Positions 12,582 to 45,540 of a stretch of 64,000 nucleotides of DNA are shown in pieces. The notes beneath the pieces are model-generated. The model was not told the origin of the DNA and ran no database searches. It worked only from the letters and a program-made list of their open reading frames with translations. This stretch comes from Nemertoderma westbladi (lineage: Eukaryota > Animalia > Xenacoelomorpha), in assembly GCA_032718475.1 (NCBI GenBank), contig JAUCBJ010006695.1, positions 134,288 to 198,287 of the forward strand, given 5' to 3'. Each line of letters begins with the position of its first letter. Position 1 is the stretch's first letter. Both the position numbers and the translations under genes were made by a program.

Positions 12582-15500
12582 TCACGTTAGGGAGTCCCTA
12601 GATGTTTGAGGTATTAGGGAGGTGGTCGTGGGAAGAGTGTCTTGCCTTCCATAGTTCCCGGAGAGTTCTCTGTCTCTTTCCAGTAAACATAAACGACCAA
12701 CTGGGCGATTGAGTTGTTGCGTCTCAAAGATGATGCCTGGTTTCTTGAAGTTACGCCGCATGACGATGAGTTCTACTGAGCGTACTAAACCATCATCTGA
12801 AATGTGTGTCTCGATGATACGACCTGTCTGCCACCGTTTACGCGGGAGGTCTGGATCTACAATAAGCACCATATCTCCGGCGCTGACGTTTTCTTGCTGC
12901 GCAAACCACTTAGTTCGAAGTTGTAGCGTGGGCAGATAATGTTTCTCGAAATGGTCAGCGAAACGACGGGATAGCAACTGCATAAGTTGCCAAGTTCGAC
13001 GGCAGTATTCGTCTCCGTCGGCAATCTCCGATCGTGGGAGCATGGCTACGGGTTTCTTCAGTAGGAAGTGCGCGGGTGTTAGCGCTTCCAGGGAATCGGG
13101 ACTCGATGAGACTGGCATAAGCGGTCTCTCGTTGAGATAGGCAGCGATTTCCTCCATTGACGTCCGCAAAAGTTCGTCGGTGAGATACGCGCGGCATGGC
13201 ACTATAAAGTGAAATGCGGTTTTGACACTTCGAATTAATCTCTCCCAACTTCCTCCCCACCAAGGGGCGTCGGCAGCGTTGAAGGTTCAGCTAGACGCTG
13301 TTATCCTTAGCTGGTCGTCCACCTGTCTTTGGTTCCAGTCCCTCACGTAAGCCTGTATCTCGTTGTTGGCACCTATGAAGTTCGTTCCTTTATCCGATCT
13401 CATGGTATTACTCATCCCGAAGCGAGCGATCTGTCGTCGTAAACTTAAGACGAAGCTGTTAGTAGATAGATCGTTCACCATATCGAGATGGATGGCTCTA
13501 CAAGTCATGCACACGAAGATGACACACCATCTCTTGACTATAGTCCTCGCACGATATACTTCAATAGGGCCAAATAAATCTACACCAGTATTAGTAAAAG
13601 GTGGTTCATAGAAGCTTACTCGTTCCCTAGGTAATTCTGCCTCTCGCTGTGTTAAAGGCCTACTGAATGCTTTCCTACAGGGTATGCAGTTCCTAAGAAC
13701 TTGGTTCAGAGCTCTACGGGGTTTATCAAAATAATAGCGAGTTCGAATTTCGCTAAGAATTCGTTCTCTACCAGCATGGTAAAGTTTACCGTGAACGTCT
13801 ACAATCATCTTGATTTGTACTTCAAGATTTCTAATAAGTATGGGGAATTTGGTGTCAAAGGATACGGGCGCGTTGGTGAGTCTTCCTCCAACACGTATTA
13901 ACCCATCTATCATTGTGCTCGAGAATCGATCCCTTAAGCGCATCTGTGGATTTCTCAACAACAGGAAGTACTTTTCGGAATCCTCATAGCATTGCAGGAG
14001 TCTCAGTATCTGTTTATTTGTTTCTTCATACTCCTGGTGACTAATTTTCTCTTTTAGAAAACGATCAGATATCCTATATTTGGGTAAATTCTTAATAACA
14101 TGAACTTGTGCAGATGTCAATGGAGCGTGATCACTAATGGTCTTCGTCCTGGAGTAGTGATGATGAAAACATCGTCTTAAATATGTGACGGCTTTACAGA
14201 GCCGATTCCAGGAACTGTAATGATGCATTGCTCTCTGCAGCATGGGTGAGATTCCTTGCGAGACGTCTGGTATTCCAGATTTCCAATCTCTATCTCTAAT
14301 TTCCACAACAGACTTATTTGTGTTGAGGGATTGTGGATCCGAAACATCATTCCCGGAAGTGTGTAATACGGATAGATCGATAGTCGGTTTAAATAACTTC
14401 GATTTACTCGCCCGGGTTTTAGGTTTGACTGTCTCCGTTCCCTTGGCTTGTCTAATCTCTGCCGTAGTAAGGTGAGGAGGCCATTCATCTTCTTCCTTGC
14501 TCAGGAAGTCGGGTCCACCCAACCAATCTGGAGTATCTATCAGTTCCTGTGGAGTTGCTCCCCTGGAGGCGATATCGGCTGGATTAATTGTACCAGGGCA
14601 ATGTCTCCATTGATCTATCTTTGTGCGACTAAGAATAATAGCTACTCGGTTAGTAACAAAAACGCTAAACTGACAGACTTCATTGGTGAGATACTCCAAC
14701 ACGAGTAAAGCGTCGGTCCAATAAACCGTTTTCTCCAGTGGATAGTCGATTTGTTCCGTTACGTTCCGGCCGATGGCTGTAGCGTATAAAGCCGCCTTTA
14801 ACTCCGCTCGAGGAACCTTTAGCTTGTTGTTAATCAATGCCTTAGAGGTAACCAAGGCGACTTTGATTCCATCCGGAGTTTCGACTCGCAGATATGCTAC
14901 TATACCTATTCCCATGTCGCTGGCGTCTCCAAACACATGGAGTTGATAGGAATACGTAGGAAGAACATGGCCAAAATATGCACGGGAAATTATAAAGTTC
15001 TCGATGGCAGGTAGAGAATCTTCCCATTTCATCCATTTCTTCAACAATTCTCCCTTAAGCGGATCGTCCCATGAGTGGTTTTCAAGCCACATCTGTTGTA
15101 CTAAACTCCGAGCAATCAATATAACTGGGCTAATAAATCCCAAATGGGTCGAAATAAGTGCTCAGGATACTTAAACAAATCCGTTTGGTCCGAACTGGAT
15201 TATCTCGCTGTTTCAACTGAAAAAACAGGATGTCTCTTTCAGTGTCCCACTTCAAGCCTAGCGTCTTGGTTTCAGGAAGATCGTCCTTTATTAAGTCTAG
15301 GTCTTTCGCTCCGCGATCTTCTACCGGTATGGCTTCCAGAAACTCACGGGAGTTGCTAGTGAATTTCGTCAGTCGAAATCCACCTCTTTTCAAACACTCT
15401 ACCGTTCCTTTCGCGACAGCTATGGCTTCTTCTACTGATGGAAGGGACCTTAAATTGTCGTCCATGTATATATTGCGTTTTATGTTGTCTATCACTTCTT

Positions 15501-18500
15501 TGGAGAAGGAGTCTCAGTTGTCATTCGCAGTGGTTCGCACCATGGAGCAGGCATTGGAAGGGCTTGATATGATCCCAAAAGCCTGGATGGTCATCCAGTA
15601 CTCTACCGGTTTCTGGTTGAGGTCTCCTTCAGGCCACCACAGAAATCTCAGGCTATCTCTATCTCTATCCAGCGCCTTGACTTGTAAGAACATTCCTTCG
15701 ATATCAGAGGCGAACGCGATGGAATATTGTCTTAATCTTAATAGTATTCCCAACAAAGATTGGAGTAAGTTGGGTCCTGGTAACAACTCGGAATTGAGGG
15801 ATTGGCCCATATATAGAGCAGAGCCATCAAATACGACTCGTACTTCATGGGGTTTACCGGGTTTGGGAACGTAATGATGTGTTAAATAATACGTTCTCTC
15901 AGTCACTGGTGTTCCTTCCGGTACTCGCTCCGCGTATCCCTTTGTTATAAATTTCTTCAGCTGAGTTTGGTACATTTCTTTCGCTGAAGCATTAGCTGTA
16001 AGTCGTCGATATAATTGAGCGATTCTTTTCTCTGCCAAGGGTCTGTTATTTATAAATCTAGGTTCTCGTTTTCGAAATGGTAGGCCGATTTCATACCTAC
16101 CTTGGTCCTTTAAAAAACGTGTAGTTGTTTCCTGGATTTGCTTGGCTCTTTCTTCTTCTATCGATAGAGCCTTATCTTATGAATTGGGCTCTACCAGTTC
16201 CTGAGTAAAGAATCGTACAGCTAGTTCGTCCCGAGTTCTAGCGTTGTAGCGCTCTATCTCATCGTTTAGTTCGTCATTGTAAGCGATGGGTTCCGATGGG
16301 TGAATCAGTTGACATAGGTTCACCTGACTTTTCCAATTTTGGTTTTCTGTAAGTAGGTCGATTGTGTTCTCTTCATCGAAGAGTTGGTAGATGTCGTCAT
16401 TATCTGAGGAGTATGGTGTTCCCTCAGTTAGTTCGTCCACCTCACTGCTCTCCACTTCCCAATCGTGTACTTGGTATGTGGGTTCTTGTGGCATTCTCTC
16501 TTCGAGAGTCCTGCGGGAAGGGCCAGTAAAGTACCAACCTACTCTAGTTCTTACTGCATAGGTTTGCAGTGGCTGTGGTTGAGCAGGCCGTTTCTCCAAT
16601 GTTTCAAGCGCCTCATGCGCGTTCTGGCCGATGAGGATTTGCACTCCAGGATAATCTGTCTGGAATCGAGGTATCTCAAGATGTTGGATGCTCTCATCCT
16701 CGTCCCAATTATAAAGGTCTGCTTGAGTAGTAGCGAAGTTCTTTATAGCCACCATTTTTACCGACCTTATACCTTGTGTTCCTAACTTATCCTGGGGGGT
16801 GGACAACACACCTACATAGTAATCTGCCGTTAAGGTAGATTTCCAAACCTGCATAATTCCTGACATATTCAATTTAGTCCGGAATTTGGGTTGTCCAGCA
16901 AAGATATCCTCGGCTAATTCTTGATCGATGAATGTTCCTGTGCTGCCAGAGTCAAGGAGGGCGTTCACTATGTAACTTTTATTAAGACCATGAACTCTTA
17001 CCTGCACCACAGGAAATTCTCTGATTCCTACGTTGGAAGTTGGAGCTTTCCAAGATGGTTGTTTGGCAAAAGTAGTTGGGGGAAACTCATCGTTGGTGAC
17101 CTTTTCATAAGTAAGTGCTCGATACACTGCGGTATTGATTAGATAACAGGATTCGTTGGCGTCGGAGAATTCGTCAGTATAGAATCCTTCCATCTCAGAC
17201 TCCTGATCAGTGTCATTTACATCACTGAATTGGACATGTAGTTCGGGCTCACTTACCTGACTCTGTTTGTCTCGTTCGAACTCACTGTGTAACAAGATGT
17301 GATGTTTCGCGCCACACTTTGCACACTTTATGTCGGAGTAACAGGTTCGCCGTTGGTGTCCTGGTCTGAGGCAATTATAGCATAACCGCTTGTCCCACAC
17401 AACTGCACGTCTGTCTACAAGGGATTTCTTTAGAAATTCAGCACACGTACTCAAACGGTGGGTCCCGTCGCACAGCGCACAGTTAGGTTTTATGTTACTC
17501 ACTTTACCTTGGGTAACTTGATGCACTCTCGTTCTTTCTTCGGGTTTTCTTCGGTGCATTCTGTTAGGAGACTGAGGAGGGGTCTTGGCAACCTGTTCTC
17601 TCCTATCGTTGTTTCGAGCCTTGTATTTACTTACATCTTTTGAGGTTTTGTCGACGTAGTAAGATCGCTCAGTATCTTTCCCGCTGTCCTCTTCTTGAGA
17701 AACTTGGCTTTCGCCGTCGTCAGTGTAACACACCGGTGTTATTCTTCTCCTAGAAGCGGGTTTCTCACTTACCTTATTTTCCGATGTTTTCTCTCTGGAC
17801 TGCTTGATGAGTTGTAGTTTTACCTCACCATCTAAGAAGGACATGAGATCAGCCATGGTAGGACTTCGTCGTTGTTGTTCATTCATGTACAACACTTTCT
17901 TGTCCCAGCGTGTACATACTCCACCCTTTGGTAAAGTAGAGACTACGGCTCCAATAACCATTGAACTCTGATATTCATGAGACTTACCCAACCAGTCCAA
18001 TTGTCTACAGATCTCCTGAATTTCATCGGAAAACTCTATAATCCCGCTACTAAGGAAGTGTCGGGGGGCTACTAATTTTGCATACAAATACTTAGCTATG
18101 TTATCCTTGTTACCATACCTGATGTTTAATGTATCCCATACTTGTCTTAATCCTTCTGGATGTCCAATAAACTTTAACGCCATTAACTTGGGAGGTCCTT
18201 CCAAGCACTTGATGAGGAACCTAAGTTTCTCTCCGTTAGATAGCACAGAGTTCTGTATGCTGTCTTTGTAATATTCGTTGAAAGGTAACCATTTCATCTC
18301 ATCTCCATTGAATTTGACGATCTCTCCCACTTTGACCGCTTGGCGGGCTTCTGTTCTAGCCATCTGCCGCGTAAAGCTTTCTTGGGCCATCGTGTTATTT
18401 AATATCGAATTATCGGTATATAAATTTCTCGGATCAGTATCAGGTCTATAGGGAATATCATTAATAACAGGTCTATAATCACCCTTAATAGGGTTTGCTA

Positions 18501-20604
18501 TAGGAGTTTCTACTTCACTAGCAGTATAGATGCGTGTAGGTTCCACACCTTGCGCATGTAAGACTTCAGACCTAACAGGTTGACACAATGTTACAGGGGG
18601 TATTGGTATTCCCTTTTGTATATTGACTAATTTGTCGCGTTCTAGCGCGATACTTTGCTGCACTTCTTGCAATTCGGCCCTACTTTCCCTTACTGTTCCC
18701 TTAAGCTGGTGGACAGTCTCCTGCATCTGTCCGAGCAGGAGATTCATCCCCCGCCGTCCCTCCTCTACCCACTCAACCGCCGAAGCGGGAGTCGCCAACA
18801 TTGTAGCGGGCTGACGTGGGATGACGGGAGACAAATCTTTGATTTCTCTCTCAGCTTCCAGGACAGGAATGTTCTCATGGACTGTTCTACCGGGTACAGG
18901 CAGTGTAGTACTGTGTAAAGGGAACTTAGAGTTAAGCTCTGGAAGTACAGGGGTCTCTAGCACAGGTGTGACTTTGGGAACGACAGGCCTAATTATTTCA
19001 GGCTCATCAACTATTGTAGGGAGTCTTTTGACCTGAATAGTTTGGTATATGGGTTCCGTACTCGCTAAGTCTGTGCTAGCTAATTGTCTTCTAACAGCTG
19101 GGGGCAAATCAGGCAATTTGTGACGATGAGATGTTTTTCTACGCCTGCTTAGACGAGATCTATTTCCTCCGCCTTCAGGATCGGTGGTTTCACTTTCTTC
19201 CGAGGATGTGTATCCCTGGCGTTTGGGAGTAGATTTTCTCATCATCTGCATGTGACTAGCAGTTAACTGTTTATTTATGTTGTCTTGCGTCTCTTGCAGA
19301 TTTTCCAACTCCAGTTGGGTAGTCTGCTCAAACGCTCTCCGTTCTGCTTCTGCCACTGCTCTTTCCGCCTTTGCTTCTGCCGCCGCTGCTTTTCTTTCTA
19401 CTTCTGCTTCTGCCGTAGCCGCCGCCTTTTGTTCCTCTATCCGTCTTTTCTTTACTTTTTCTTCTTGGACTCTAGCGAGGCGGAGTTTTTCATCAAATTC
19501 TGCTTGGTTAGCAGCTAACATTTCAGCATCGATTGAATCTAACACACGCTGGGTTCCTTCACTATTGGGGGAAAGTCCAGACAGCCGTCTCCTCAATTCT
19601 TCGTCTCCTAGGAATCGCTGATAGTCGGACAGATAAATGTCTATGGCGTCTCTCGCTCGTGGTTTCTCTGAGGTCTCTTCGCCTTCCACTTGAGAAAGGG
19701 TGGCATCGGTTGGTTCTTCATAAGTTAGTCTCTCAGACAGCTGTGATTTCCACTGGTCTGTTTCTTGGATTTGGAGACCTATCCGCTGGAACTAAGTTTT
19801 GACAGCAACCTGCAGTGACGTGTCCTGTCTTCTTTTGGAAGTTTCCTCAAAAGCTGATAGGATTAGTCGAATGCGTAGGGTTCTTTCGCGTACTTGATAT
19901 AGCAGTTCTTCCTGCTCTTGAGGTCCTTGGGGTTGTCGAAACAGTTGTTCTTCTAATCTCTCTAAGGAGCCGAAGAATCCCTGCACATATCCTGCTGCCG
20001 ACCTCTTCCAAACAGCTGGATCCATCGTATCTTTTGCCACTCCCATCCTGTGTATATCTTCCCAAGTAGCCTCGGACAGATCCAACGGGAGTCCGGGTCC
20101 GGGAAAGTTCCATTGTGACTCGACAATAGACATCAATTCTTCCCTGGCGTATCCCGCATAATTATCTTGGGTCGCTCGCTTATTTCTCGCCCAATCTGCT
20201 TGATGTTCCTCCACCGCAATCAATATAGTTGTTAGCACTGCGGCAGGAAGGGTGAGAAGGGGGTCCGAGTAGGCTTTAGACGTCATCTGCAATCCACGTT
20301 CGGGGGTCAGTTCGACAGTATCCGAACTACTGGAGCTATCTGATCGCTGGGAACAAGTTTCTTGACTAGGCTGTTGCTGCTGTGGGACAGCTGCTTCCTG
20401 GTTCCGTTTGACTTGAGCCCGAGTGCCGATGATGGACCTACGGTGTTGGATTAGCTTAGGGTCCGATATCACTACTGGAGGGATGACTTTTCTTTCAGTA
20501 GGAGGTGAGCTGAACTCCTTTCTTAATCGCTCAACACTCCTATCTGTGTCACAGATGGTTGTATCGATTAGGCTGTCTGACAGGGTTTGCTGAGTGTCAG
20601 ACAT
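12582..20604 (-). pseudogene. Element A gag-pol polyprotein, disrupted
   Basis: Gag IVKFNGDEMKW, CALCDGTHRLSTC/CYNCLRPGHQRRTC/CAKCGAKHHILLH; protease LLDSGS; RT SDIEGMFLQV, YMDD; RNase H FGDAS, PRAEL, WTDA; integrase GVDLFGP, SDKGTNF, WERLI. In-frame stops at 19792, 16177, 15514 and 13287, frameshift near 15143. Confidence 0.95.
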
Positions 20605-21944
20605 GTTTAGCTATACAGTTGAATGCTTACTGCTATAGTTACAGTTAAAGCAAGTCTGGTAATTCAGTATGACCGTTGGCCTAGTACCGGTAATTTATTG
20701 CAGTATATTAGAATACCGGTATGCGCTTATAATATATATATAAGTATTGTAAACTAGGTTTGTCACAGAGTACCGGTATATAATTTTAGCACAAATATAT
20801 ATAAATATATAATAGGCCTATCGTGAATACCGGTATACAGCTTACACTTATAGTATATATAAGTATAATTATGAACTAGAATTATTACAGAATACCGGTA
20901 TGATTTCAGCTCAAATTTATAGAAATAAATATAATAAGCCTATGATAAATACCGGTATGTCAATTATTTTAGAATAATTGATTTTCTGAATATTTAGGGT
21001 TACTTGGTTACTTCAACTTACCTTATTACCGTTATTTAAGCAGTAGTCCAACTGAATTTTAGACCTAGTTGTTGTATGGCAGGCCTACTATTTATAAATC
21101 GTTTGAATTGATTTATAATAGATATATACCCGTTTAAAATGGGTTTTGTCAATATCTGAAATAAATGTTATTATTTCTGGGGGTCACTACACAGAAGCTG
21201 TGCGCTCTCAGTGAAGTGCTATTTATTGGACACTAAAACTGATAATTCTAATTTACCTAAGTTACTTAATACTACAAATTACTTACGATACGGGTGAGAT
21301 TAAATCTCTAGTTAAACACAACAAAAAATTATTACGTACGAATTTTTTAGGGTAATTTTACAAGAAGTCTACAAACCAGTCTAACAAAGGGTTAGAATTC
21401 TGGTTATTACAACGGACAGGGTACTACGGTATTTGAAAATAATAAGTAGTAGTAAATACACTGCGCTGTCCAGATAGGAAAATACCACCGCCTGACGACC
21501 TATAGCCGTATCGCTATAGGTACTACGTTATGTATCACGGAGTGTTCCTACCTGGAAGTTAATTACCGCGGACTACCAGATCCAGCGTGCCTATTAACCA
21601 CTTTACAACACAAATATACTGCCTACACACTAATTACTTTCGGAAAGCACTGTACACTAAACCCTAAATTAGGTACAAGTACTGGTACAACAAATAATCA
21701 GTAGTTAAATATACTTGAACAGTTAAAAGAACCACGGCATCTGCTGGAGTGACCAGAGCACAAAGTCACCAGTCTTGTCCTACACCAAGCAGCCCGTGTA
21801 GTACCGGGGTTAATTTAACTATAACTGTATGTGTAACAAACACAATTACTGTAGGAATGAACTTGGGGACATGAATGTTGCGAATAATCGCATAAACTCT
21901 GAATAATAAATATTACGCTACCCGTACAGAATACTCAAACTAAT

Positions 21945-22425
21945 ACAAACCAAAACGCTGGCAGACTACCACCAAGCCTAAATAAACTACTGTATGTGCA
22001 GATTCCAAAACGGTTAGTTAGTATGCGTTCTAACACGGTAGTACGACTTATTCTTTAAGAGGGGATTGACCTTACAGTTATGACTGCCCCAACTTACTAA
22101 CTGGCACTTTATCAGACAAACTCTACACAAGCAGCAATCTCTTCAGACCTAATAATAGCTAGACAACAGTCCAGCCTACAAAATATCTGAGTAATAACTA
22201 TTACGGTACCTGAACAGACCACACAAACAAACACAAGCCAAAACGCTGGCAGAATACTGTCAAGCCTAAATAAACTACAGTATGTGCAGATTCCAAAATT
22301 GTTAGTTAGTATGCGTTCTAACACGGTAGTACGACTTATTCTTTAAGAGGGGATTGACCTTACAGCAATGGCTGCCCCAACTTACTAACTGGCACTCTAT
22401 CGGACAAACTCCACACACGCCGTAA
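21945..22425 (-). repeat. ~290-bp-period duplication in the 5' leader of element A
   Basis: aaaacgctggcaga...gcctaaataaactac...aagaggggattgaccttacag...ctgccccaacttactaactggcac occurs twice; also duplicated in element B (~30415-30880). Confidence 0.85.
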
Positions 22426-22754
22426 TCTCTCCAAACCCAACAACAATCTGACAACAGTCCGGCCTACAATTATCTGAACAATCTGAGCAGACTTACACGT
22501 CTTCAGCTCAATATTAACTTACATGTAAATAAAACCGACAGAAATAAGTAAAATCTCAATAAAAAACCAGGGCTGCAGTCCCTGATTAAATACTAAGACC
22601 TACCGGTATACAATAATCAAAATCGAATAATACTAATGTACTTGTACTGGAAGTACCGGTTGGGACAGTTGGGCCTACTGACCTACAGAAGTACCGGTTC
22701 AGGTTTACCGGTCGACCGGTACTTTCAACTTTATTGCTTACTGCAATAAAGTCA

Positions 22755-22765
22755 ATGACTGTTAT
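22755..22765 (-). promoter_or_regulatory. Primer-binding-site position of element A (ATAACAGTCAT), complementary to LTR site 23536-23546
   Basis: Directly abuts the 5' LTR end; no TGG; exact 11-nt complement inside the LTR. Confidence 0.8.
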
Positions 22766-24046
22766 TGTACGCGCTTTTGAAGACCTTTAGCAGTTTAACC
22801 TGCCAAAATTTATATGTCTTTTGGTTTATAAATATACTTTAGAAGAAGACAAATATTTTATACCAATAAACACAACATTAGCAGAAGCCAGCCTAGTGCG
22901 CGTCCATTCACCCGCTGGATAATCCCGGGAGACTGGATTCTGTCGGCTTAAATTATTATTGCAGTGAAGCTTACGGTATTGTATTATTCGATTGATCGTT
23001 AATAATTAATTTCTGACTAATATTATTTACTTTCGGGAAATATTAACAGTTCCTTTAGGACGTGGCGCTCTATCTAGGTAAACAGAGATATGACTTATAC
23101 TAATCACAACGGTAAGTCGGTAAGGCTTAAGATTCACGTATGAGGCGCATTCTTTAGGAAATGCTTAGTTATCAATCACAATCATGCACACTACCGGTAA
23201 CACACAATACTGCTCACTAATTTGCCGACAGTCAATGAATTTTATCATATATAAAGAGAATAGCAACGGACCAATGTAGTGCTTATCAAATAGCATTAAA
23301 TTCACTACAAACCACAATAATATAAGTCGCAATCGCTATATATAACCCGTCTCTCTAACCTGTAGTGTATCAAGAAAATTGGGAAATTTGGGTTCTTTAT
23401 ATATGTTCTCCAAATAATATTCAACCAAACACAATAGTAAACAGCAGTATAATAATGTATATTGAACCGATAATATAAAAACAGAAACCAGTTGATATGA
23501 ATTGAATTGCATTGAAGTGATAAGAATTGTTGTTGATAACAGTCATACGCTCTATAATTTTAGCCTACTAATGTTTCTTATAAAAGTATGAAACGAATTG
23601 ATTCTAGAGCCGTTGTTCCTGGCCTAGACAGCAATAACAACAAAGTATCAAGAAAAAACTGTAAGACTGAACACACTCCTTATGATCGACCGAAAAGCTA
23701 CACGTCGACAGGAAAAATCTCTCTGATTGGTTCAAGCCAAACAAAGAACCATGCGTCCAATGGCTGTTTCCATGTCAGCAACCAGCTGTTAGATGTCGTA
23801 ATATGAATCATCACGGCTAAGCTATGAAGGGTATTTGTCACATTGCAGGTTTTTTGTCTTACCATGTCCGCTAAAACACGTATATAGCAGAATGACTTTT
23901 ATGTCCGTTAAAACACCTGTAACGGTACCTTGAGGGCGAGGGGAATATTTATACAGTTAGAGAACCTTTTTAGAGTATTCCAGCGCCTGGGGGGAAACTG
24001 GATTGCGAAGCAAAGGGGCCAGTTATATCCCACAGAAGCTTTTACA
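22766..24046 (-). repeat. 5' LTR of element A
   Basis: Minus strand reads TGTAAAAGC...CGCGTACA; direct repeat of 5348-6628. Confidence 0.97.
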
Positions 24047-24718
24047 CTATTTGAAATAATTTTGATAAAGCCATAGGCTATTTTGGACACAATCAACCTA
24101 TATGGGAGACAAACATCCTATATGGGACTCTAACAACCTATTTGAGGCAAATTTAAGACTTATTAAGGACTATTTCGGATGAAGTTGAGTCTGGGGGAGG
24201 AGGGTGCGATAACACTAATTTGATTGTCATTTAATTATTATTATACGAATGTATTTAGATTTATTATAAATGAATAAATTGCACCACATGAATAAATTGC
24301 ACATGAAAAATTGCACAACATGTATAAATTGTACAACATGAAATGAAATAATGTGACTATGATGACACTATAGCCTATAATGCATCACAGTCTTACAGGC
24401 ATTTGCAAGGCACCTACAGTATATCTTTAACTTTAATTTTCCATTAACCTTTACATTATATAGCCAATAAGGGAGATGCCTAACTTTAGGAATGGTACAA
24501 AAGTAAGGGGGGTGGGGTCTTTCTTTTGTACCCGTTTTGTACCAGGGGTTGGTATTGGTCCGATGATGAGGAGTTGGCTCATATGATGATTTGATTGGAT
24601 GCCCCTATCTGGACAGGTTGGAAATCATTACACAACGTATTTGGGACAGGTAGGAATAATAGAAAGCCCTATAGAAGTGAAGGGAAACACCCTATTCTGG
24701 ACAATGATGTAGATACTA
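24047..24718. mobile_element. Foldback element, right part
   Basis: Reverse complement of ~3577-4360; ends ...tgatgtagatacta, possible TA TSD. Confidence 0.8.
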
Positions 24719-24947
24719 TTGATGCAGACTGTATAACAGAACGTGTATATTACATTAGGTACCGTACTTACAGCATGCATGTACATTACCTGTAAACTCT
24801 GAAACTCAATAATTGGAGATAATAGCGAGTCTTCAGTCATCATATTGAAATTTCATTTTGCTGTAATTTTGTCCTAATCATGGATTATCTTTATTTGTGT
24901 CATCTGTGTGTGTATGTATGACTTTTGAGATATATTTTTATTGCAGA

Positions 24948-25180
24948 TAGGGGGGAAACTGGACGCAATAAAAATTAATCCCTCTCCAGGGGAAATTCGA
25001 CGCAAATAACAGATGATTACTCTCAAAAATAAAACTGTAACATGTTCTATTGTGTTTAGTTTATTATTGTTTTGGTTAAACTAATTTGCCATTATTTGCC
25101 ACTAACCTGCACCTTTCCCTAAATTGAGAATTTAACATTGAGGCGGGATATTAATTCACCAAGGTGGGTTTTGCGTTGAG
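24948..25180 (+). repeat. Dispersed repeat with related copies at ~39790-39990 and ~49930-50005
   Basis: Shared gggg(a)act..acgcaataaaaattaatc...aggggaaat.gacgc..acag.tgattact motif. Confidence 0.55.
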
Positions 25181-25639
25181 TTCCCCCCTTTCTCTTTTAT
25201 TGATACTGGTGTAATTAAACTAAACTAAATGTGGAAGGTATGTAGGCAAATACGCTGGATCGGCGAATTTTCCACAATGTACGCGGAAGATACCGGAACA
25301 TTTTAAAATTGTTTATTCACTTTAATTCAGTAGTGCGTACCATGCGCTGCAACTGCACGCCACAAGAACAATGACAAGGTGAGATGTTAAGGCCTACAGT
25401 ACAATAACAGACAGCCTACCGGTACCAGGCAGAGAGGAGCCAGGAGCAACAGAGTAGCAAGCAACCCAGAATGCTTCAGTAGAAATGGAAACTGATCTTG
25501 CATCAGCAGTTGGCCTACACCAAGTGTATGTCGCAATTTCATGTACGCTGGATTACAATGCGAAATGAAAAACTAGAGGGAGCCCAAAGGCTCCTCTGCT
25601 CATTGGAGCAGGTTGCTTTTGTAGTGTTGCTCTTTTTGT

Positions 25640-26060
25640 AAATTCCAAGAAGACCAAAATCATGACAGTCAACCTAGACAGCCCTCAAGAAAGTAGTACC
25701 AGTACTCTTATATGGGAGTCCTTATATGGGCTCTAACTGCAGAGATACCAAATCTCTGGATGGCACTTTCATAAGAATGCTGCGCCGGGTTCATTATGTC
25801 AAGTACAATGAACACATCTCCAATCAGACTCTATACAACATTGGAGGTGTTCCATTAATCTCCCCTAGCTTAACACTTGAATGGAACCACCTCCGTGTTG
25901 CAGGTCATTGCTTTCACCATGAGGACCATAGTCAGTGCATAATCTTGTGCTTTGGCGCCCTCATGGAGCGAATAAGCATGGTGGACAGCCCATGGCTTTC
26001 TTGAGATGCATCTTAAAGGACACTGGCCTTGAAAATGCGGATGACCTAGCAAATGTCATG
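25640..26060 (+). mobile_element. Degraded non-LTR retrotransposon (RTE-like) 3' fragment
   Basis: LDGTFIRMLRRV...HISNQTLY...LRVAGHCF resembles the C-terminal part of LINE RT ORFs; related remnant at ~53825-53925. Confidence 0.6.
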
Positions 26061-26214
26061 ATAATATATATATAATGCAACTGCAATGCTGCATGCCGAT
26101 CGTAGTAGTAGTAGTAGTTGTACAAATATATATATGTGAACTTCAAGTTCTTGTAAGAATTCACTCTAAATATCCATTATACCGTATTATATTATTATAT
26201 GAATATTCGAATAT

Positions 26215-26415
26215 TATATGAGTACCAGTAATATATTTCTCATACTACTCATATGATTATATGAGTAGTATATTTCTCATACTACTCATATGATTATATG
26301 AGTAGTATATTTCTCATACTACTCTTGATTTTATGTATATTTCTCATACTACTCATATGATTATATGAGTAGTATATTTCTATTACTACTCATATGATTA
26401 TATGAGTAGTATATT
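26215..26415. repeat. 36-bp tandem repeat with internal palindrome (atactactcatatgattatatgagtagtat)
   Basis: About 5 units visible. Confidence 0.85.
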
Positions 26416-26963
26416 CACCTTCCACAGCTTTTTCTCTAATGCGAACATGAACACCCAATTGAGCTGCGAAAACTATTAAGAACCCTTTTTGTAACACAGT
26501 AGTAATGACTCGAAAAACACACAAATATTATCTGATGGTTAGTTACAACAAGGGTTAGTTACAACAAGCGTAAACACAATACTTAGTTCAATTTCAAATT
26601 TCAAATTTTAATTTTATTTTCCTTTTAACAATTTCCTAGATTGCATACAATCTGGTGATGGTGATGACGGAGTAGCAGACAATAGCGTAACTAGTGTTAC
26701 TTTAGTTCTTCTGACATTCTAGAGGAGATCATACAGGCGACGTGTAGCAGATCTTGATCTTCATATGCTGGATGAAGTCTCCATGAATGCTATTGGAGTT
26801 GCAATTAAGAATTAACTAACCCAAAGGGAATTATTAAAATTACATCTGTAATCATATAATCAATCAATGACAATATTCAAAATTCTTTCTTATGTAGAAA
26901 TTTGTATTCATTGATCAACTAATCCTGTGTAGTTATTTCGTATGGTGTAGTATATAGTGCACA

Positions 26964-28436
26964 ATGGATATTATCGCCATTTTAATATTCTTTATTGCCT
27001 CGATTTCAAGCTATATATGTTATTATCATTTTACTAAAAACACCTTAGGAAACCGCAGACCCCCATCACCAAGTGGTGTGCCAATCCTGGGCAATTTGAT
27101 CAGTGCATGGAGGTCCAAACATTCACTGGTTATGACTTATTGGAAGTGGAGTAAAGAATTATCCTCCAATGTTATTCGGGTGCGTGTCCCAGGCCAAAAT
27201 ATAATAGTACTGAATTCCCTGCCAGTGATTCGACAAGCATATATCGAGAAAAGCAATCTGCTCTCTGGGCGCACAAGTCTCATCACTGAAAGAGGAATTT
27301 TATTGTCCACAGGACCTATATGGTACCATCAAAGGAAGTTATTCATGTCAGTTATGCGACAATTCTATCTTGGGAAAATATCATTCGAGCAACGTGTTGC
27401 GGAAGAAGCGACCTACCTTTGCCATTGGATGGCGGACCAAGAAGGTTCTCCCTTTGACCCCTTTATGATGTTCAGCAAATCAGTTTCTAATATCATCAGT
27501 GGAATTGTATTTGGAAATCGTTTCGAATATGATGATCCTGAGTTTATATATCTCCTACAACTGGTACACCAATCAGTTCGTATTTTCGTATTGCTCTATG
27601 CTCTTCCAAAGTTCATTGTTGATGCCTTGGTTGGTGACAATGCCAATCCCCACAAACTGTTTGCAAACATGGCTCAAGTTTGTCAGAAACATATAGTTCA
27701 TCATTGGGAGACCATCGATTATTCCTCCACTCCCAGGGATTACATAGATGCGCATCTCATGGAAGAGAAGAAGTATTTAAATTCTCTAGATACCAAAACC
27801 GCTGACTACTACAATGATTTGAATCTTTCCGAATCAATTAGAGACCTCTTCCTTGCAGGCAGTGAGACCACAAGTAGCGCACTCTACTGGTTCATACTAA
27901 TTCTAGCCAGTCATCCTGATGTTCAGAGTAAATGTCAAGGTCTCCTAGATTCCGAGGTTGGCAGAGACCGACTTCCAAATCTCACCGACCTCTCCAAATT
28001 ACCATATTACGAAGCTTGTCTACTGGAGGTTCTTCGATATGGGGTTATCCTGCCCTCGGATATCAGTCGTAAAGTCCCACGTGATGTGACTATCGATTCT
28101 TTCACTATCCTGCCTAGTGATGTGGTCTTGATGAATATATGGGCCCTGCTGAGAGACCCTGCTGTCTGGGCCAGGCCTACAGAATTCTACCCAGAACATT
28201 TCCTGACAGCAGATGGGTCGGCGGTGATCAAACCCGATCACTTCCTTCCATTTGGAGTTGGGGCGAGGTCTTGTGCTGGTCAGCGATTGGCTATCATGGA
28301 GTTTCGGATATTTAGTAGCCATTTGATCCACTCGTTCACTTTTGTGGGAGAGGGAGAACTTCAATTGGGGGAAGTAGAACATGGTGGAACACGAATTCCT
28401 AAATCTTATAAAATTCGTGCTAATTTGAGGTTCTAA
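26964..28436 (+). CDS. Cytochrome P450, clan-2-like, intronless, 490 aa (copy 1)
   Basis: N-terminal hydrophobic anchor, PPSPSGVPILGNL, WYHQR, AGSETT, EVLR, PEHF, heme motif FGVGARSCAG. Confidence 0.96.
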   Translation: MDIIAILIFFIASISSYICYYHFTKNTLGNRRPPSPSGVPILGNLISAWRSKHSLVMTYWKWSKELSSNVIRVRVPGQNIIVLNSLPVIRQAYIEKSNLLSGRTSLITERGILLSTGPIWYHQRKLFMSVMRQFYLGKISFEQRVAEEATYLCHWMADQEGSPFDPFMMFSKSVSNIISGIVFGNRFEYDDPEFIYLLQLVHQSVRIFVLLYALPKFIVDALVGDNANPHKLFANMAQVCQKHIVHHWETIDYSSTPRDYIDAHLMEEKKYLNSLDTKTADYYNDLNLSESIRDLFLAGSETTSSALYWFILILASHPDVQSKCQGLLDSEVGRDRLPNLTDLSKLPYYEACLLEVLRYGVILPSDISRKVPRDVTIDSFTILPSDVVLMNIWALLRDPAVWARPTEFYPEHFLTADGSAVIKPDHFLPFGVGARSCAGQRLAIMEFRIFSSHLIHSFTFVGEGELQLGEVEHGGTRIPKSYKIRANLRF

Positions 28437-28793
28437 TATTTTATTTTAATAATTATATCACACTTTACGCTATTCAATTATAAGGCGATCCCATTTCATA
28501 AACATTAAGTATAATAAGTAATAACAAAGCGAGTTCCATAAAGTAAATTGAATTTATTAATATTTTTGGTCCATTTTTGACTGTCATTTTCTTATAATAA
28601 TTACAATTGGCAGTGGTATACCGTGAATTGTACTGCATAACTACATGTTGAGTCGTTCCCAGTCAACAATACTCAACTTTTTTTAATCCCAAGGACACTG
28701 CCCCGCCCCCATACCGCTAGGTTGTTCTCACTCAACGGTGTACTGCTGCCCATTTGGTACACTGCGGTTTGCAGTTTCGTTGTCTACGAATAT

Positions 28794-29985
28794 TGTAAAA
28801 GCTTTTGTGGGATAACTGATTCGTTTGCTTTGCTAACCAGTTCCCCCCAGTCGCTGAATACTCTAAAAAGGGATCTATAGCTAAAATAGTGCAAGCTACC
28901 AGCTTATTGGCTGAGGGGCTGTACGAAGGTATCTGGGTTCTGCTCGATCGGCCAACCAGCTTAGGGAGGTTGCCTCAGCCATGCTGTCCGTATCGGCCAA
29001 TAGAATTTGAGTGGGCGTTGATTTTGACCTATCCCAGAGCTACTGAACTGAATTTCCTATCTGTATGCTCATCCTCTGTGTTGGACGGGAGCTTCGGGGA
29101 ATAAGGGTAGTTGGTATCCTCGTATAGTCATGTAGTCACATGTTTCTGTTGTTGTGTTCCCATTTTTCGCCATAACACCGGCTTTTGGAACAACTCTAGC
29201 AAAAACTGCTTAGATTATAGAAAGTATAACTGTTACCGGCGGTACTTACCAACTAATCGGCACACGGCACGGACTTTAATTACTAATCATATTGTTTGTA
29301 CTGCTATTTACCATCAGTTATTAATTGTATCGATTTGTTGATGAAATATTGTCATTTGGAGAATATTGATAAATCACCCAAATTTCCCAATTTTCTTGAT
29401 ACACTACAGGTTAGAGAGACAGGCTATATATAACAATTGCGATTTATATCAATGTGGTGTGTATTGAATCTAATGTTATTTAGTAGACACTACCTGAGTC
29501 AATTGCTGTTCTCTTTATGTGTGATCAAATATACTGACGGTCGGCAGAATAGTGTGCATGATTGTGAGTGTGACTGGTAACAAAGCATTTCCTAAAGAAT
29601 GCGCCTTATACTTTAATCATAAGCCCTATCGTTGCGTTTAGTATAAGTCCTAGCTCTGTTTAAATAGATAGAGCGCCACGTCCTAAAGGAACTGTTAATA
29701 TTTCCCGAAAGTTAATAATATCTGTCAGAAATTACATATTAGCGATCAATCGAATAATACAGTAGGTTTACACTGCAACCTTACACTGCAATAATAAAAT
29801 CTAAGCATCCGAATTCAGCCTCCCGGGTGTATCCATCGGGTGAATGATCGCGCATGGGCTGGCTTCGGCTAATGTTTTGTTTATTAGCATAAAAATATTG
29901 TCGTATGCTAAAGGTGTGTTAATTAACTAAAAGACATATAAATTTTGGCAGGTTAAACTGCTAAAGGTCTTCAAAAGCGCGAACA
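28794..29985 (+). repeat. 5' LTR of element B
   Basis: TGTAAAAGC...CGCGAACA; direct repeat at offset 9791 with ~2 substitutions noticed. Confidence 0.97.
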
Positions 29986-29997
29986 GTAACAGTTATA
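29986..29997 (+). promoter_or_regulatory. Primer-binding-site position of element B (GTAACAGTTATA), complementary to LTR site 29225-29236
   Basis: Abuts the LTR end; exact 12-nt complement TATAACTGTTAC inside the LTR; no TGG. Confidence 0.8.
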
Positions 29998-32238
29998 AAT
30001 CTTATTGCAGTAAGCAATAAGGTTGCAAAATACCGTAGTGACCGGTAAATCTGAACCGGTACTTCTGTAGGTCAGTAGGCCCAACTGCCAGAACCGGTAC
30101 TGCTGTAGGTCCGTAGGTCCAACTGCCAGAACCGGTACTTCTGTAGGTCTGTAGGCCCAACTGTCCTAACCGGTACTGCTGTATCAGTACATTAGTATTA
30201 TTCGAATTTGATTAGTGTATACCGGTAGGTCTTAGTACTTAATCAGGGACTGCAGCCCTGAATTTTTATTGAGATTCTACTTATTTCTGTCGGTTTTATT
30301 TACTAGTAGGCTAATATTGAGCAGAAGGCGTGTGACCCTGCTCAGATTGTTCAGATAATTGTAGGCTGAGCTGCTGTCTGACTGTTGTTGGGTTTGGAGA
30401 GATTACGGCGTGTGTAGAGTTTGTCTGATAAAGTGCCGTTAGTAAGTTGGGGCAGCCATATGCTGTAAGGTCAATCCCCTCTTAAAGAATAAGTCGTACT
30501 ACCGTGTTAGAACGCATACTAACTAACTATTTCAGAATCTGCATATACTGTAGTTTATTTAGGCTTGATCGTAGTCTGCCAGCGTTTTAGCCTGTGTTTG
30601 TTTGTGTGGTCTGTTCAGGTACCGTAATAGTTATTACTCAGATATTTTGTAGGCTGGATTGTTGTCTAGCTATTATTAGGTCTGAAGAGATTGCTGTGTG
30701 TGTGGAGTTTGTCTGATAAAGTGCTGTTAGTAAGTTGGGGCAGCCATATGCTGTAAGGTCAATCCCCTCTTAAAGAATAAGTCGTACTACCGTGTTAGAA
30801 CGCATACTAACTAACCATTTCAGAATCTACACGTACGGTAGTTTATTTAGGCTTGGTGGTAGTCTGCCAGCGTTTAGTTTGTATTTGTTTGAGTATTCTG
30901 TATGGGTAGCGTAATATTTATTATTCAGAGTTTATGCGATTATTCGCAACATTCATGTCCCCAAGTTTATTCCTACAGTAATTGTGCTTGTTATACATAC
31001 CGTTATAGTTAAATTAACCCCGGTACTACACGGGCTGCTTGGCGTAGGACAAGACTGGTGACTTTGTGCTCTGGTCACTCCAGCAGATGCCGTGGTTCTT
31101 TTAACTGTTCAAGTATATTTAACTACTGATTATTTGTTGTACCGGTACTTGTACCTAATTTAGGGTTTAGTGTACAGTGCTTTCCGAAGTAATTAGTGTG
31201 TAGGCAGTATATTTGTGTTGTAAAGTGGTTGATAGGCACATTCGTTAGCTCTATTAACTTCTGGGTAGGAACACTCCGTGATACATAACGTAGTACCTAT
31301 AGCGATACGGTTATAGGTCGTCAGGCGGTGGTATTTTCCTATCTGGACAGTGCAATATATTTACTGCTACTTATTATTTCAAATACCGTAGTACCCTGTC
31401 CGTTGTAATAACCAGAAATCTAACCCTTTGTTAGGCTGGTTTGTAGACTTCCTGTAAAATTACCCTAAAAATTTCGTACGTAATATTTTTGTTGTGTTTT
31501 AATTAGAGAATTAATCTCACCCGTATCGTAAGTAATTTGTAGTATTAAGTAACTTAGGTAAATTAGAATTATCTGTTTTAGTGTCAAATAAGTAGCACTT
31601 CACTGAGAGCGCACAGCTTTTGTGTAGTGATTACTTCCCAGAAATAATAACATTTATTTCAAATATTGACAAAACCCATTTTAAACGGGTATATAAATAT
31701 TATAAATCAACTCAAACGATTTATAAATAGTAGGCCTGCCATACAACAACTAGGTCTCCATATCAGTTGGACTACTGCTTAAATAACGGTAATAAAGTAA
31801 GTAAAGTAACCAAGTAACCCTAACATTCAGAAATTCAATTATTTTAAAATAATTGACATACCGGTATTTACAATAGGCTTATTATATTTATTCGATAAAT
31901 TTAGGCTGAAATCATACCGGTACTCTGTAATTAATTCTAGTCCAGAATTATACTTATATACTATAAGTGTAAGCTGCATACCGGTATTCACGATAGGCCT
32001 ATTATATATTTATATATATTTGTGCTAAAATTATATACCGGTACTCTGTGACAAATCTAGTCTGTAATAATACTTATATATATACTATAAGCATACCGGT
32101 ATTCTAATATATTGTATATATATCACGTTACACCGAGTAACGGTATCGGTAATTAATCGCTAGGCTTGCAGTGATACTGAATTACTAGACTTGCTTTAAC
32201 TGTAATATAGCAGTAGGCATTCAACTGTACAAACAAAA

Positions 32239-35200
32239 ATGTCTGACACAAAACGGGCACTGTCAGATAGTCTTTTGGAAGGTGTTAGAATGAGTCTTAG
32301 ACTTGGACAGGGTCTTGAAAGGAAGATGGCAGAGGCAATGGCAACAGCAGAAGCGAAAAGAAAGGCGGCAGAGGCAATGGCAACAGCAGAAGCGGAAAGA
32401 AAGGCGGCAGAGACAATGGCAACAGCAGAAGCGGAAAGAAAGGCGGCAGAGGCAATGGCAACAGTAGAAGCGGAAAGAAAGATAGAGACACCTGTACTCC
32501 CAGAACCTGCCTATAAATTCCCTTTGTACAGTACTAAACTACCTGTGCCCAGTAGGACTGTTCCCGAGTCCGAACCCGTCCTGGACGCCGAGCGAGATAT
32601 CAAGAATTTATCGCCCGTCGTCTCTCGCTCGCCCGCTACTACGTTGGCGACTCCCGCTTCGGCGGTTGAGTGGGTAGCTGAGGGACGACGGGAGATGGGT
32701 CTCCTTCTCGAGCAGCTGAGGGAACACTGTTTGTGCTCCTCTCAGCAGGTCCGGGAAATGGAAGAGACTGTCCAGCAGCTCAAGGGAACAGTAAGGGAAA
32801 GTAGGTTAGAGTTGCAAAAGGTGCAGCAAAGTATCGCGTTAGAACGCGATAAATTAGTCAATTTACAAAAGGGTATACCACCACCCCCTGTAACAATGTG
32901 TCAACCCGTTAGGTCTGAAGTATCTCATGCGCAAGGTGTGGAGCCTACACGCATCTATACTGCTAGTGAAGTAGAAACTCCTATAGTAAACCCTATTCAG
33001 GGTGATTATAAACCTGTTGATAATAATATTCCATATAGACCTGATCATAATCCGAGAAATTTATATACCGATAATTCTATATTCAATAATACGATGGCTC
33101 AAGAAAGTTTTACGCGTCAAATGGCTAGAACCGAAGCCCGTCAAGCGGTAAGGGTTGGAGAGATCGTCAAGTTCAATGGAGATGAGATGAAATGGTTACC
33201 TTTTAATGAATATTACAAAGATAACATACAGAATTCTGTGCTATCTAACGGAGAGAAACTCAGATACCTCATTGAATGCTTGGAAGGACCTCCCAAGTTA
33301 ATGGCATTAAAGTTTATTGGACATCCAGATGGATTAAGACAAGTTTGGGATACATTAAACATCAGGTATGGTAACAAGGATAACATAGCTAAGTATTTGT
33401 ATGCAAAATTAGTAGCCCCCCGACACTTCCTTAGTAGCGGGATTATAGAGTTTTCCGATGAGATTCAAGAGATCTGTAGACAACTGGACTGGTTAGGTAA
33501 GTCGCATGAATATCAGAGTTCCATGGTCATTGGAGCCGTAGTCTCTACTTTACCAAAGGGTGGAGTATGTACGCGCTGGGACAAGAAAGTGTTGTACATG
33601 AATGAACAACAACGACGAAGTCCTACCATGGCTGATCTCATGTCCTTCTTAGATAGTGAAGTAAAATTACAACTCATAAGGCAGTCCAGAGAGAAAACAT
33701 CGGAAAATAAGGTAAGTGAGAAACCCGTTTCTAGGAGAAAGATAATACCAGTGTGTTATACTGACGACGGCGAAAGCCAAGCTTCTCAAGAAGAGGACAG
33801 CGGGAAAGACACAGCAAAATCTTACTATGACAACAAGACCTATAAAGACGTAAGTAAATACAAGTCTCGAACCAGTGACAGGAGAGAACAGGTAACAACA
33901 ACTCCTCCTACGTCTCCTAAGAGAATTCACGGAAGAAAGCCCGAAGAAAGAACGAGAGTGCAGAACGTTAACCAAGTTAAGGTGAGTAACATCAAACCAA
34001 AATGTGCGCTGTGCGACGGGCCCCACCGTTTGAGTGCGTGTGCTGAATTTCTAAAGAAATCCCTTGTAGACAGACGTACAGTCCTGTGGAATAAGCGGTT
34101 ATGCTATAATTGCCTCAGATCAGGACACCAACGGCGAACCTGTTACTCCGACATAAAGTGTGCAAAGTGTGGCGCGAAACATCACATCTTGTTACACAGT
34201 GAGTTCGAACGAGACAAACTGAGTCAGGTAAGTGAGCCCGAACTACATGTCCAATTCAGTGATGTAAACGACACTGATCAAGAATCTGAGATGGAAGGAT
34301 TCTATACTGATGAATTCTCCGACGCCAACGAATCCTGTTATCTAATCAATACCGCAGTGTATCGAGCACTTACTCATGAAAAGGACACCAACAATGAGTT
34401 TCCCCCAACTACTTTTGCCAAACAACCATCTTGGAAAGCTCCAACTTCCAACGTAGGAATCAGAGAATTTCCTGTAGTGCAGGTAAGAGTTCACGGTCTT
34501 AACAAAAGTTACATAGTGAACGCCCTCCTTGACTCCGGCAGCACAGGAACATTCATCGATCAAGAACTAGCCGAAGATATCTTTGCTGGACAACCCAAGT
34601 TCCGGACTAAATTGAATATGTCAGGAATTATGCAGGTTTGGAAATCTACCCTAACGGCAGACTACTATGTAGGTGTGTTGTCCACCCCCCAGGATAAATT
34701 AGGAGCACAAGGTATAAGGTCGGTAAAAATGGTGGCTATAAAGAACTTCGCTACTACCCAAGCAGACCTTTATAATTGGGACGAGGATGAGAGCATCCAA
34801 CATCTTAAGATACCTCGATCCCAGACAGATTATCCTGGAGTGCAAATACTCATCGGCCAAAACGCGCATGAGGCGCTCGAGACATTGGAGAAACGGCCTG
34901 CTCAACCGCAGCCACTACAAACCTATGCGGTAAGAACTAGAGTAGGTTGGTACTTCACTGGCCCTTCCCGTAGAACTCTCAAAGAGAGATTACCTCAACA
35001 ACAGGTATACCAAGTAAAGGGGGAAGTGGAGAGCAGTGATGTGGACGATCCAACTGAGGGAACACCATACTCCTCAGATAATGACGATATTAACTCCAAT
35101 GTAGATCAATGGAGACATTGCCTTGGGACGATTAATCCAGCCGACATCGATTCCAGAGGAGCAACTCCTCAAGAACTGATAGATACTCCAGGCTGGTTAG

Positions 35201-35433
35201 GTGGATCCGACTCCTTAAGTAAAGAAGAAGAAGAATGGCCTCCTCATCTTACCACGGCAGAAATTAGACAGGCCAAGGGAGCGGAGAAAGTAACACAACA
35301 ACTCAATCGCCCAGCTAGTCGTTTATGTTTACTGGAAAGAGACCGAAAACTGTCCGGAAACTATGGAAGGCAAGATACTCTTCCTACGGCCGCTTCCCTG
35401 GTCCGACGAATGTCTGGGGACTCCATAACGTAA
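32239..35433 (+). CDS. Element B Gag-protease ORF (1064 aa) fused in frame to short RNase H-region and integrase-tail remnants
   Basis: Same Gag knuckles and LLDSGS as A; after DNDDI it jumps to DQWRHC...NPAD, then to TQQLNRP...; no YxDD and no DDE core. Confidence 0.93.
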   Translation: MSDTKRALSDSLLEGVRMSLRLGQGLERKMAEAMATAEAKRKAAEAMATAEAERKAAETMATAEAERKAAEAMATVEAERKIETPVLPEPAYKFPLYSTKLPVPSRTVPESEPVLDAERDIKNLSPVVSRSPATTLATPASAVEWVAEGRREMGLLLEQLREHCLCSSQQVREMEETVQQLKGTVRESRLELQKVQQSIALERDKLVNLQKGIPPPPVTMCQPVRSEVSHAQGVEPTRIYTASEVETPIVNPIQGDYKPVDNNIPYRPDHNPRNLYTDNSIFNNTMAQESFTRQMARTEARQAVRVGEIVKFNGDEMKWLPFNEYYKDNIQNSVLSNGEKLRYLIECLEGPPKLMALKFIGHPDGLRQVWDTLNIRYGNKDNIAKYLYAKLVAPRHFLSSGIIEFSDEIQEICRQLDWLGKSHEYQSSMVIGAVVSTLPKGGVCTRWDKKVLYMNEQQRRSPTMADLMSFLDSEVKLQLIRQSREKTSENKVSEKPVSRRKIIPVCYTDDGESQASQEEDSGKDTAKSYYDNKTYKDVSKYKSRTSDRREQVTTTPPTSPKRIHGRKPEERTRVQNVNQVKVSNIKPKCALCDGPHRLSACAEFLKKSLVDRRTVLWNKRLCYNCLRSGHQRRTCYSDIKCAKCGAKHHILLHSEFERDKLSQVSEPELHVQFSDVNDTDQESEMEGFYTDEFSDANESCYLINTAVYRALTHEKDTNNEFPPTTFAKQPSWKAPTSNVGIREFPVVQVRVHGLNKSYIVNALLDSGSTGTFIDQELAEDIFAGQPKFRTKLNMSGIMQVWKSTLTADYYVGVLSTPQDKLGAQGIRSVKMVAIKNFATTQADLYNWDEDESIQHLKIPRSQTDYPGVQILIGQNAHEALETLEKRPAQPQPLQTYAVRTRVGWYFTGPSRRTLKERLPQQQVYQVKGEVESSDVDDPTEGTPYSSDNDDINSNVDQWRHCLGTINPADIDSRGATPQELIDTPGWLGGSDSLSKEEEEWPPHLTTAEIRQAKGAEKVTQQLNRPASRLCLLERDRKLSGNYGRQDTLPTAASLVRRMSGDSIT

Positions 35434-45030: not shown

Positions 45031-45540
45031 ACCTGTGCTAATGACATTCTTGTATTGTTTTGTTAGAATATTGTGCCACTGGAACCTTCTCCTTTGCCAT
45101 AATATTAATAATTGATAAATCGATTAAAAATTGATAAAAATTCAATGAGATGGGATTTGCGACAAGTTTCCTTCCCCCCTGTCTCGAATTATGATAGATT
45201 CCCCAAAGTGCATATTAAGTTAGCATAATTGTATGAGAAGTGTTCGAGTGCAGCCTACTAAACAGCTTTGAAGCCTCTTCTCATCTTTACTTGCAAGACA
45301 TTAGCAGGGGGGGGGGGGGGGGGGGTTGACGTGTAGCAGTTCAGAATACTACTGAGTTGAAATTAACAAACCCAAAGAGAATAATAAATTTGTCACTGTA
45401 TCTCATAATCAAAAAGACAAAAATTATATAGTATATTGTACCAAATTTCTTTCAAATATAGATTTATATATATCGTTTGATTGACTAATCCTGTATAGTT
45501 ATTTCATATATGTCGTTCATGGAATAGTATATACAGTAGA

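Follow-up and report, generated by a model that had tools for sequence, protein, structure and literature searches.

Candidate self-priming of two BEL/Pao retrotransposons from Nemertoderma westbladi and of distant BEL/Pao families

The stretch of DNA analysed here (hereafter the window) comprises 64,000 nucleotides (nt) of Nemertoderma westbladi (contig JAUCBJ010006695.1, positions 134,288 to 198,287) and harbors two related retrotransposons with long terminal repeats (LTRs), A and B, inserted in opposite orientations. Each carries, at the primer-binding position (PBS) that follows its 5' LTR, a complement of a site of its own LTR, which the original prediction took as a sign of self-priming without any tRNA. 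Element A is located on the minus strand; its 5' LTR (24046-22766, TG..CA ends) and 3' LTR (6628-5348) are 1281 bp long, differ by 2 mismatches and are flanked by a 5-bp target duplication, AATAG (24051-24047 and 5347-5343). Element B, on the plus strand, has LTRs of 1192 bp (28794-29985, TG..CA ends, and 38585-39776) that also differ by 2 mismatches, with the 5-bp duplication AATAT (28789-28793 and 39777-39781). Hence, the direct LTRs, TG..CA ends and target duplication known from BEL/Pao elements are found in both.

Element A encodes on its strand a gag-protease frame with DUF1759, zinc knuckles and a DSG protease motif (16177-19791, minus strand), with a 272-aa piece upstream (19792-20610, minus). 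Then come a reverse transcriptase region with the YMDD motif (15133-16176, minus), RNase H (Peptidase_A17), integrase zinc finger and core and DUF5641 (12582-15161, minus) and, 3' of pol, an extra frame of 1422 aa (6707-10975, minus). In-frame stops interrupt the reverse transcriptase region at 16179 and 15516 and the following region at 13289, and the reading frame changes near 15133-15161. Element B retains a gag-protease frame with DUF1759 (32206-35433, plus), its counterpart of the extra frame being deleted and broken; since most of its pol is deleted, it is non-autonomous. Both elements are young, as their near-identical LTRs indicate, but defective, owing to the stops and frame change in A and to the pol deletion in B. 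For their copying, they probably depended on an intact helper elsewhere in the genome, acting in trans. Being defective and yet recently inserted, they would carry cis-acting signals that have worked recently.

The domains of A detected with Pfam follow the BEL/Pao order (DUF1759, Peptidase_A17 with an E-value of 5.5e-30, Integrase_H2C2, DUF5641), and PF05380 (Pao family) is present in all 120 matches listed for its RNase H-integrase piece (identity about 27-42%); the Pfam reverse transcriptase models do not match its two reverse transcriptase pieces. This Pao-type set and order of domains bears out the assignment of both elements to BEL/Pao in the original prediction. Domains, LTRs and 5-bp target duplication agree with the profile of the Belpaoviridae (Semotivirus) of the ICTV, which describes genomes of 4.2-10 kb and an 18-nt PBS for tRNA-Arg or tRNA-Gly (PMC8742986). 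A and B differ from this profile by the total span of A, 18.7 kb, and by the absence of a tRNA-complementary PBS, no TGG being found at or near the LTR end of either element. Since the family is delimited by Pol, this PBS is a descriptive trait and not a criterion of membership. Membership in the Tf1/sushi group, which is marked by the Pol of Ty3/gypsy chromoviruses, was rejected, since the domains are of Pao type and no Pfam match to a chromodomain was found. The best homologues share about 30-40% identity in pol and 23-37% in gag-protease; no closer relative was found: a BEL query in viral contigs gave 0 matches, as did a pattern for the LTR end searched in viral and genome contigs. A FastTree phylogeny of the RNase H-integrase region, with 89 rows and 548 columns, contains BEL/Pao rows only, without gypsy or copia outgroups or named clade references; in it, A is located on a long branch (1.42) and its placement is unsupported.

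In both elements, the PBS begins at the first base after the 5' LTR (spacer 0) and is a perfect complement of an LTR site, without any TGG. The PBS of A has 11 nt (22765-22755, minus) and matches 23546-23536 (minus), with a second copy of the candidate primer at 6128-6118 in the 3' LTR. That of B has 12 nt (29986-29997, plus) and matches 29225-29236 (plus), with a second copy at 39016-39027. The coordinates, complementarity and lack of a TGG site given in the original prediction were all confirmed when both elements were re-checked. About 750-770 nt separate the candidate primer from the LTR end. Both matches also fall within the working definition of self-priming given in PMC6317226: at least 10 nt, 0-5 nt after the 5' LTR and complementary to the LTR. 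The ends of the two matches coincide in the alignment save for a single base, and T|A is found at that point in both. Two PBS positions, 1 and 9, distinguish the 11-mer of A from that of B, and each change is indeed mirrored in the partner LTR site; the longest exact complement between the PBS of one element and the LTR of the other is only 6 nt. Shuffled LTRs contained a match in 23 of 20,000 cases for A and 8 of 20,000 for B (chances of about 1 in 900 and 1 in 2,500), two figures that are not independent since the elements are related. Among the internal sequences of the elements, a complement in the own LTR exists for 7 of the 16,126 11-mers of A and for 2 of the 8,588 12-mers of B.

The candidate primer is contained in a conserved island of 23 nt (23536-23558, minus, in A; 29214-29236 in B). 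The original prediction correctly recognized this island but placed it at the edge of unalignable sequence; it is located inside this sequence (about 23965-23421 in A) and is surrounded by diverged LTR on both sides. About 550 nt of LTR give no blastn alignment between A and B (23965-23421 versus 28871-29345), while the pol-side and LTR-end sequences are 80-94% identical, which suggests that the promoter part turns over fast or has been exchanged. In the island, the 5' half reads TTATAG and then GTAT, which might serve as a donor, an acceptor or a TATA-like word; a TATA-like word lies 36 nt upstream of the 11-mer of A. Furthermore, a block of 45 nt identical in A (23349-23393, minus) and B (29376-29420, plus) is pyrimidine-rich and then reads CAG|GT, like a splice site. 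A second CAG|GT sits 34 nt before the LTR end.

Folding of the RNA from the 11-mer to past the PBS, assuming that transcription starts at the 11-mer, predicts that the two sites pair across about 780 nt, with a probability of 0.8-1.0 at 10 of 11 positions in both elements. Moreover, a hairpin of 9 bp, identical in A and B, is predicted near the LTR end (22785-22808, minus, in A; 29943-29966 in B) and one of 11 bp directly 3' of the PBS (22727-22753, minus, in A; 29998-30024, plus, in B). Between A and B, the latter shows one double-sided and two one-sided changes that keep the stem. Self-priming of Tf1 requires hairpins beside the primer helix (U5 stem); their counterparts here are predictions. 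The Rfam search gave 12 sub-threshold matches, none of them in the LTRs, and the window contains no tRNA gene.

Four public sequence runs, one of which (X4) is only presumed to be RNA, were examined as contigs. The LTR matches 10,590 contigs in X1 and 2,665 in X3, and their number and variety indicate a large and varied family. Summed depth, which is not a copy number, amounts to 137,675 in X1 and 72,177 in X3 for the bin covering the island with the flank upstream of it, in which the 11-mer is not separated out, versus 501 and 681 for the next bin downstream. Within the PBS, the sole variant reaching at least 1% is the B state of position 9 (73% of the depth in X1, 100% in X3); the B change at position 1 is not among the variants at this threshold. 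In addition, at least two further PBS types precede the same hairpin at loose contig ends (one X4 contig; 11 X1 and 5 X3 contigs). As their LTR partners are not visible, these types point to drift of the PBS and not to covariation. A PBS primed by a tRNA is reset to the tRNA at each cycle, and the variable PBS of the window family is thus unlike such a site. No joint between X4 contig sequences was found at the candidate splice sites, the joints seen being also present in a DNA run or corresponding to deletions.

The same trait is found in most of the distant relatives examined. Among 80 BEL/Pao loci from metagenome contigs, 48 have no LTR pair and 32 have direct repeats, 28 of which are of LTR type (those of L025, L062, L071 and L077 are not LTRs). 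Four same-family records (L013, L029, L036, L042) and two loci without a readable LTR end or leader (L033, L043) were dropped, leaving 22 families. In 19 of these, a perfect complement of the own LTR, 10-16 nt long, lies 0-5 nt from a CA end; the lengths cluster at 10-13 nt and the letters are unrelated between families. The match is contiguous in seven families (L010, L020, L022, L050, L053, L070, L080). In the other 12 (L004, L012, L027, L031, L044, L047, L056, L061, L063, L074, L076, L078), it exists only across a junction within the LTR, with a first part of 4-9 nt, a donor GTAAG, GTGAG or GTAAA and an acceptor AG. For A and B, a splice-junction primer was rejected since their match is contiguous. 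In each positive family, 0-3 of 40 shuffles reached the observed match length. Where a second LTR or the flank fixes the LTR end (L012, L029, L031, L047 and L070, four families), 0, 0, 1, 0 and 13 of 1,000 shuffles did so. The candidate primer ends with A and a pyrimidine in 18 of the 19 tabulated elements (A and B included), with a C thereafter in 14 of 19, although this was not a search criterion. One family, L007, has a TGG tRNA-type site and no self-match; TGG-type sites are likewise found in L009 and L065. The leader of L050 carries a 14-nt LTR match and, adjacent to it, a second match of 12 nt, and this element groups with tRNA-type elements in the tree.

In this tree, one clade of 67 rows (support 100) holds all 14 junction-type rows and five of the six labelled contiguous rows; L076 is not in the tree and L080 is present, unlabelled, inside the clade. 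The three TGG-type rows and L050 are outside, as is A. Junction and contiguous forms are close kin twice (L063 with L070, L044 with L053), consistent with the loss or gain of an intron. Since most of the alignment behind the search patterns for these loci came from the 67-row clade, the proportion of 19 in 22 cannot be extended to BEL/Pao as a whole.

We estimate at roughly 0.8 the probability that RNA derived from the LTR primes minus-strand DNA synthesis in A and B instead of a host tRNA. The self-priming proposed in the original prediction draws support from the fixed register at the LTR end, from the changes mirrored between PBS and LTR site and from the finding of the trait, with unrelated letters, in 19 of the 22 other families. 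An LTR-derived RNA of 11-12 nt would pair with the PBS and prime minus-strand synthesis, and plus-strand synthesis would then copy the primer into the new PBS. Primer mutations would therefore be carried over, giving the perfect, wobble-free matches. In junction-type families, the 4-9 nt part would be a cap-proximal first exon, and only the 5' copy would be spliced. The similar match length in all families and the short first part may be explained by a primer located at the 5' end of the RNA; for A and B, the original prediction placed the start of transcription at about 23546 and 29226, respectively, which has the indirect support of the nearly coinciding match ends with T|A and of the match lengths of 10-13 nt in relatives, and the odds that their RNA starts at the 11-mer itself seem about even.

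Several points weigh against this interpretation. The evidence consists of contig sequences. The covariation consists of two pairs in two elements; both changes are transitions, G-U intermediates are possible for both, and the LTR site of A can pair with the PBS of B through two G-U wobbles. The mirrored changes on which the claim of compensatory covariation was based are thus real, but weaker evidence than this term implies. No TATA-like word is present 25-35 nt upstream of the candidate primer in B or in most relatives. Among the 22 families, L021 and L067 have neither a self-match nor a tRNA-type site and, in most relatives, the LTR end was picked by the match itself. In L031 and L070, a bulged extension of the pairing argues against a primer located at the very 5' end of the RNA. 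Lastly, pol identity to the relatives does not go beyond about 30-40% and A is outside the clade that holds most of them; they therefore support the trait by analogy and not by close descent.

Given this wobble fit and the two transitions, the two elements alone would also suit a single outside primer, such as a host tRNA half or another small RNA, with the LTR site as a by-product or decoy. The PBS core shared by A and B presumably resembles the anticodon loop of tRNA-Asn, and an RNA with the 11-mer of A fits both PBSs. Half-tRNA priming is known in copia lineages, according to the accessible part of PMC6317226. However, an outside RNA leaves unexplained that the LTR site of B tracks its PBS at both positions, that further PBS types precede the same hairpin (their partner sites are not visible) and that 19 unrelated PBSs each match their own LTR, and we consider it quite improbable. 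Unrelated letters in 19 of 22 families, 12 of them with junction-only matches, argue against a tRNA fragment and also against a protein-binding motif. The latter would be the case if one transcription factor bound both sites in opposite orientation. Positions 2-8 of the PBS are identical in A and B, with no listed variant of at least 1%, the LTR site is in a promoter-like island, and we take the 7-nt shared core to fit an Ovo/Myb-type motif. Such binding gives no reason for the mirroring of positions 1 and 9 or for the match at positions 10-12, and junction-only matches are absent from the DNA that the factor would bind, which makes it slightly harder still to credit.

A structural role of the pairing, as a long-range helix between LTR and leader that would serve packaging, the control of translation or the formation of dimers, with some other primer in use, is unlikely but has several observations on its side. 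Two further conserved hairpins flank the PBS, the 11-mer with the B base at position 9 (the commonest state) is nearly palindromic and the pairing extends with bulges in L031 and L070. Yet every positive family has a perfect Watson-Crick helix that starts within 0-5 nt of the LTR end, a structural helix needs neither this fixed register nor the shared A and pyrimidine end, and no other primer site (TGG) exists in A or B. Chance, finally, might be favored by the AT-rich sequence and by the lack of independence between A and B. It is hardly credible given that shuffles gave 23 and 8 matches in 20,000, that the changes are mirrored and that 19 of 22 other families show the trait.

Beyond the window, we incline slightly to the view that tRNA-free self-priming is the rule over a large part of BEL/Pao. 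In many families, splicing of a very short cap-proximal exon would build the primer, and intron loss would lead to the contiguous form; in the deep-branching lineage of the window, the trait would be either ancestral in BEL/Pao or one of several independent origins. Self-priming is known elsewhere, but is not described for this superfamily. A self-encoded tRNA-like primer may exist in Cer elements of C. elegans; a literature search did not confirm it. BEL/Pao replication is called poorly understood and is assumed to be tRNA-primed (PMC8742986). No precedent for BEL/Pao self-priming was found in the literature covered; subscription papers, supplements, Repbase and GyDB are outside this coverage and may hold one. 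The accessible parts of PMC3118150, PMC6238403, PMC554778 and PMC9094657 contain nothing on priming under primer, PBS or tRNA, and those of PMC3601003 and PMC13524379 nothing on BEL/Pao priming.

Self-priming is reported for the Tf1/sushi and Tcn1 gypsy groups and predicted for TAR copia elements in the available portions of PMC6317226 and PMC4600332. In Tf1 and Tf2, according to the part of PMC5341516 at hand, the self-primer, which lies in R, anneals to the PBS, and the element's reverse transcriptase cleaves it off; an excerpt of PMC11042837 describes a copy of the Tf1 PBS in single-stranded DNA at the cDNA end. As far as the accessible texts go, Tf1/Tf2 of Schizosaccharomyces pombe, Tj1 of S. 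japonicus, Tf1/sushi and Tcn1 resemble A and B by a PBS at the 5' LTR with complementarity to an LTR site over about 11 nt and by the lack of a tRNA site (PMC4600332, PMC5341516, PMC6317226), and the first five bases of the Tf1 PBS are those of the A PBS (PMC11042837). However, A and B are BEL/Pao and not gypsy elements, and start site and cleavage have been shown for Tf1, whereas A and B are known from their sequence alone. Moreover, a junction primer is found in 12 relatives here but not in the accessible Tf1-type literature. For the TAR/Houba/Osr-1 lineage of plant Ty1/copia elements, self-priming was, as for A and B, predicted from sequence alone, according to the portion of PMC6317226 available; these elements differ by their copia domain order and plant hosts. 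This prediction, made in a second LTR superfamily, shows that the trait has several origins, so that a third case would be less surprising. By contrast, fungal GalEa elements have no PBS and reportedly no such self-match (PMC5445492, in part).

BEL/Pao is one of the three superfamilies of LTR retrotransposons of animals. If the interpretation is correct, its description as tRNA-primed would have to be corrected, self-priming would be common to all three superfamilies and 'PBS-less' elements met in annotation would be explained. In addition, a splice-dependent primer would tie replication to RNA processing and offer hosts a new control point.

The extra 1422-aa frame of A is intact even though its gag-pol is broken, and has an exonuclease-like middle, Cys/His knuckles and a basic C-terminus. 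It has no match in Pfam or among solved structures; an atlas lead points to DNA_pol_A_exo1 and zf-CCHC clusters (score 0.89), the one relative found (E-value 4e-7) has weak matches to the same families, and the predicted structure has a pLDDT of 28. Its central part, with Cys/His knuckles after it, resembles a DEDD-type 3'-5' exonuclease fold; this resemblance is a lead only, and the first acidic motif position appears to be replaced. According to the accessible part of PMC5408684, the bdelloid LTR elements Juno and Vesta carry a DEDDy-exonuclease ORF3 and thus, like A, an extra frame 3' of pol that resembles this fold; A differs by the length of its frame, by this apparent replacement and by the tentative nature of the resemblance. 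Trimming of the primer by this frame was considered and set aside because of the replaced position and because the scored relatives, which are elements of 6-7 kb, have no long extra frame. A general role of the frame in priming is unlikely.

The leaders of A and B each contain a 288-bp tandem duplication (21891-22477 and 30351-30929). Element A is inserted in a fold-back element rich in tandem repeats, whose arms are now split (3577-5365 and 24040-24718; 92-96% inverted match). About 360 nt after the first of two uninterrupted cytochrome P450 frames of the plus strand (26958-28436 and 45499-47013) lies the insertion of element B. The two frames encode 492 and 504 aa, share about 91% DNA identity and have their best matches, at 34%, to fish CYP2. 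In addition, a fragment of a rhodopsin-family seven-transmembrane receptor (Pfam 7tm_1) is located at 58482-59195 on the minus strand.

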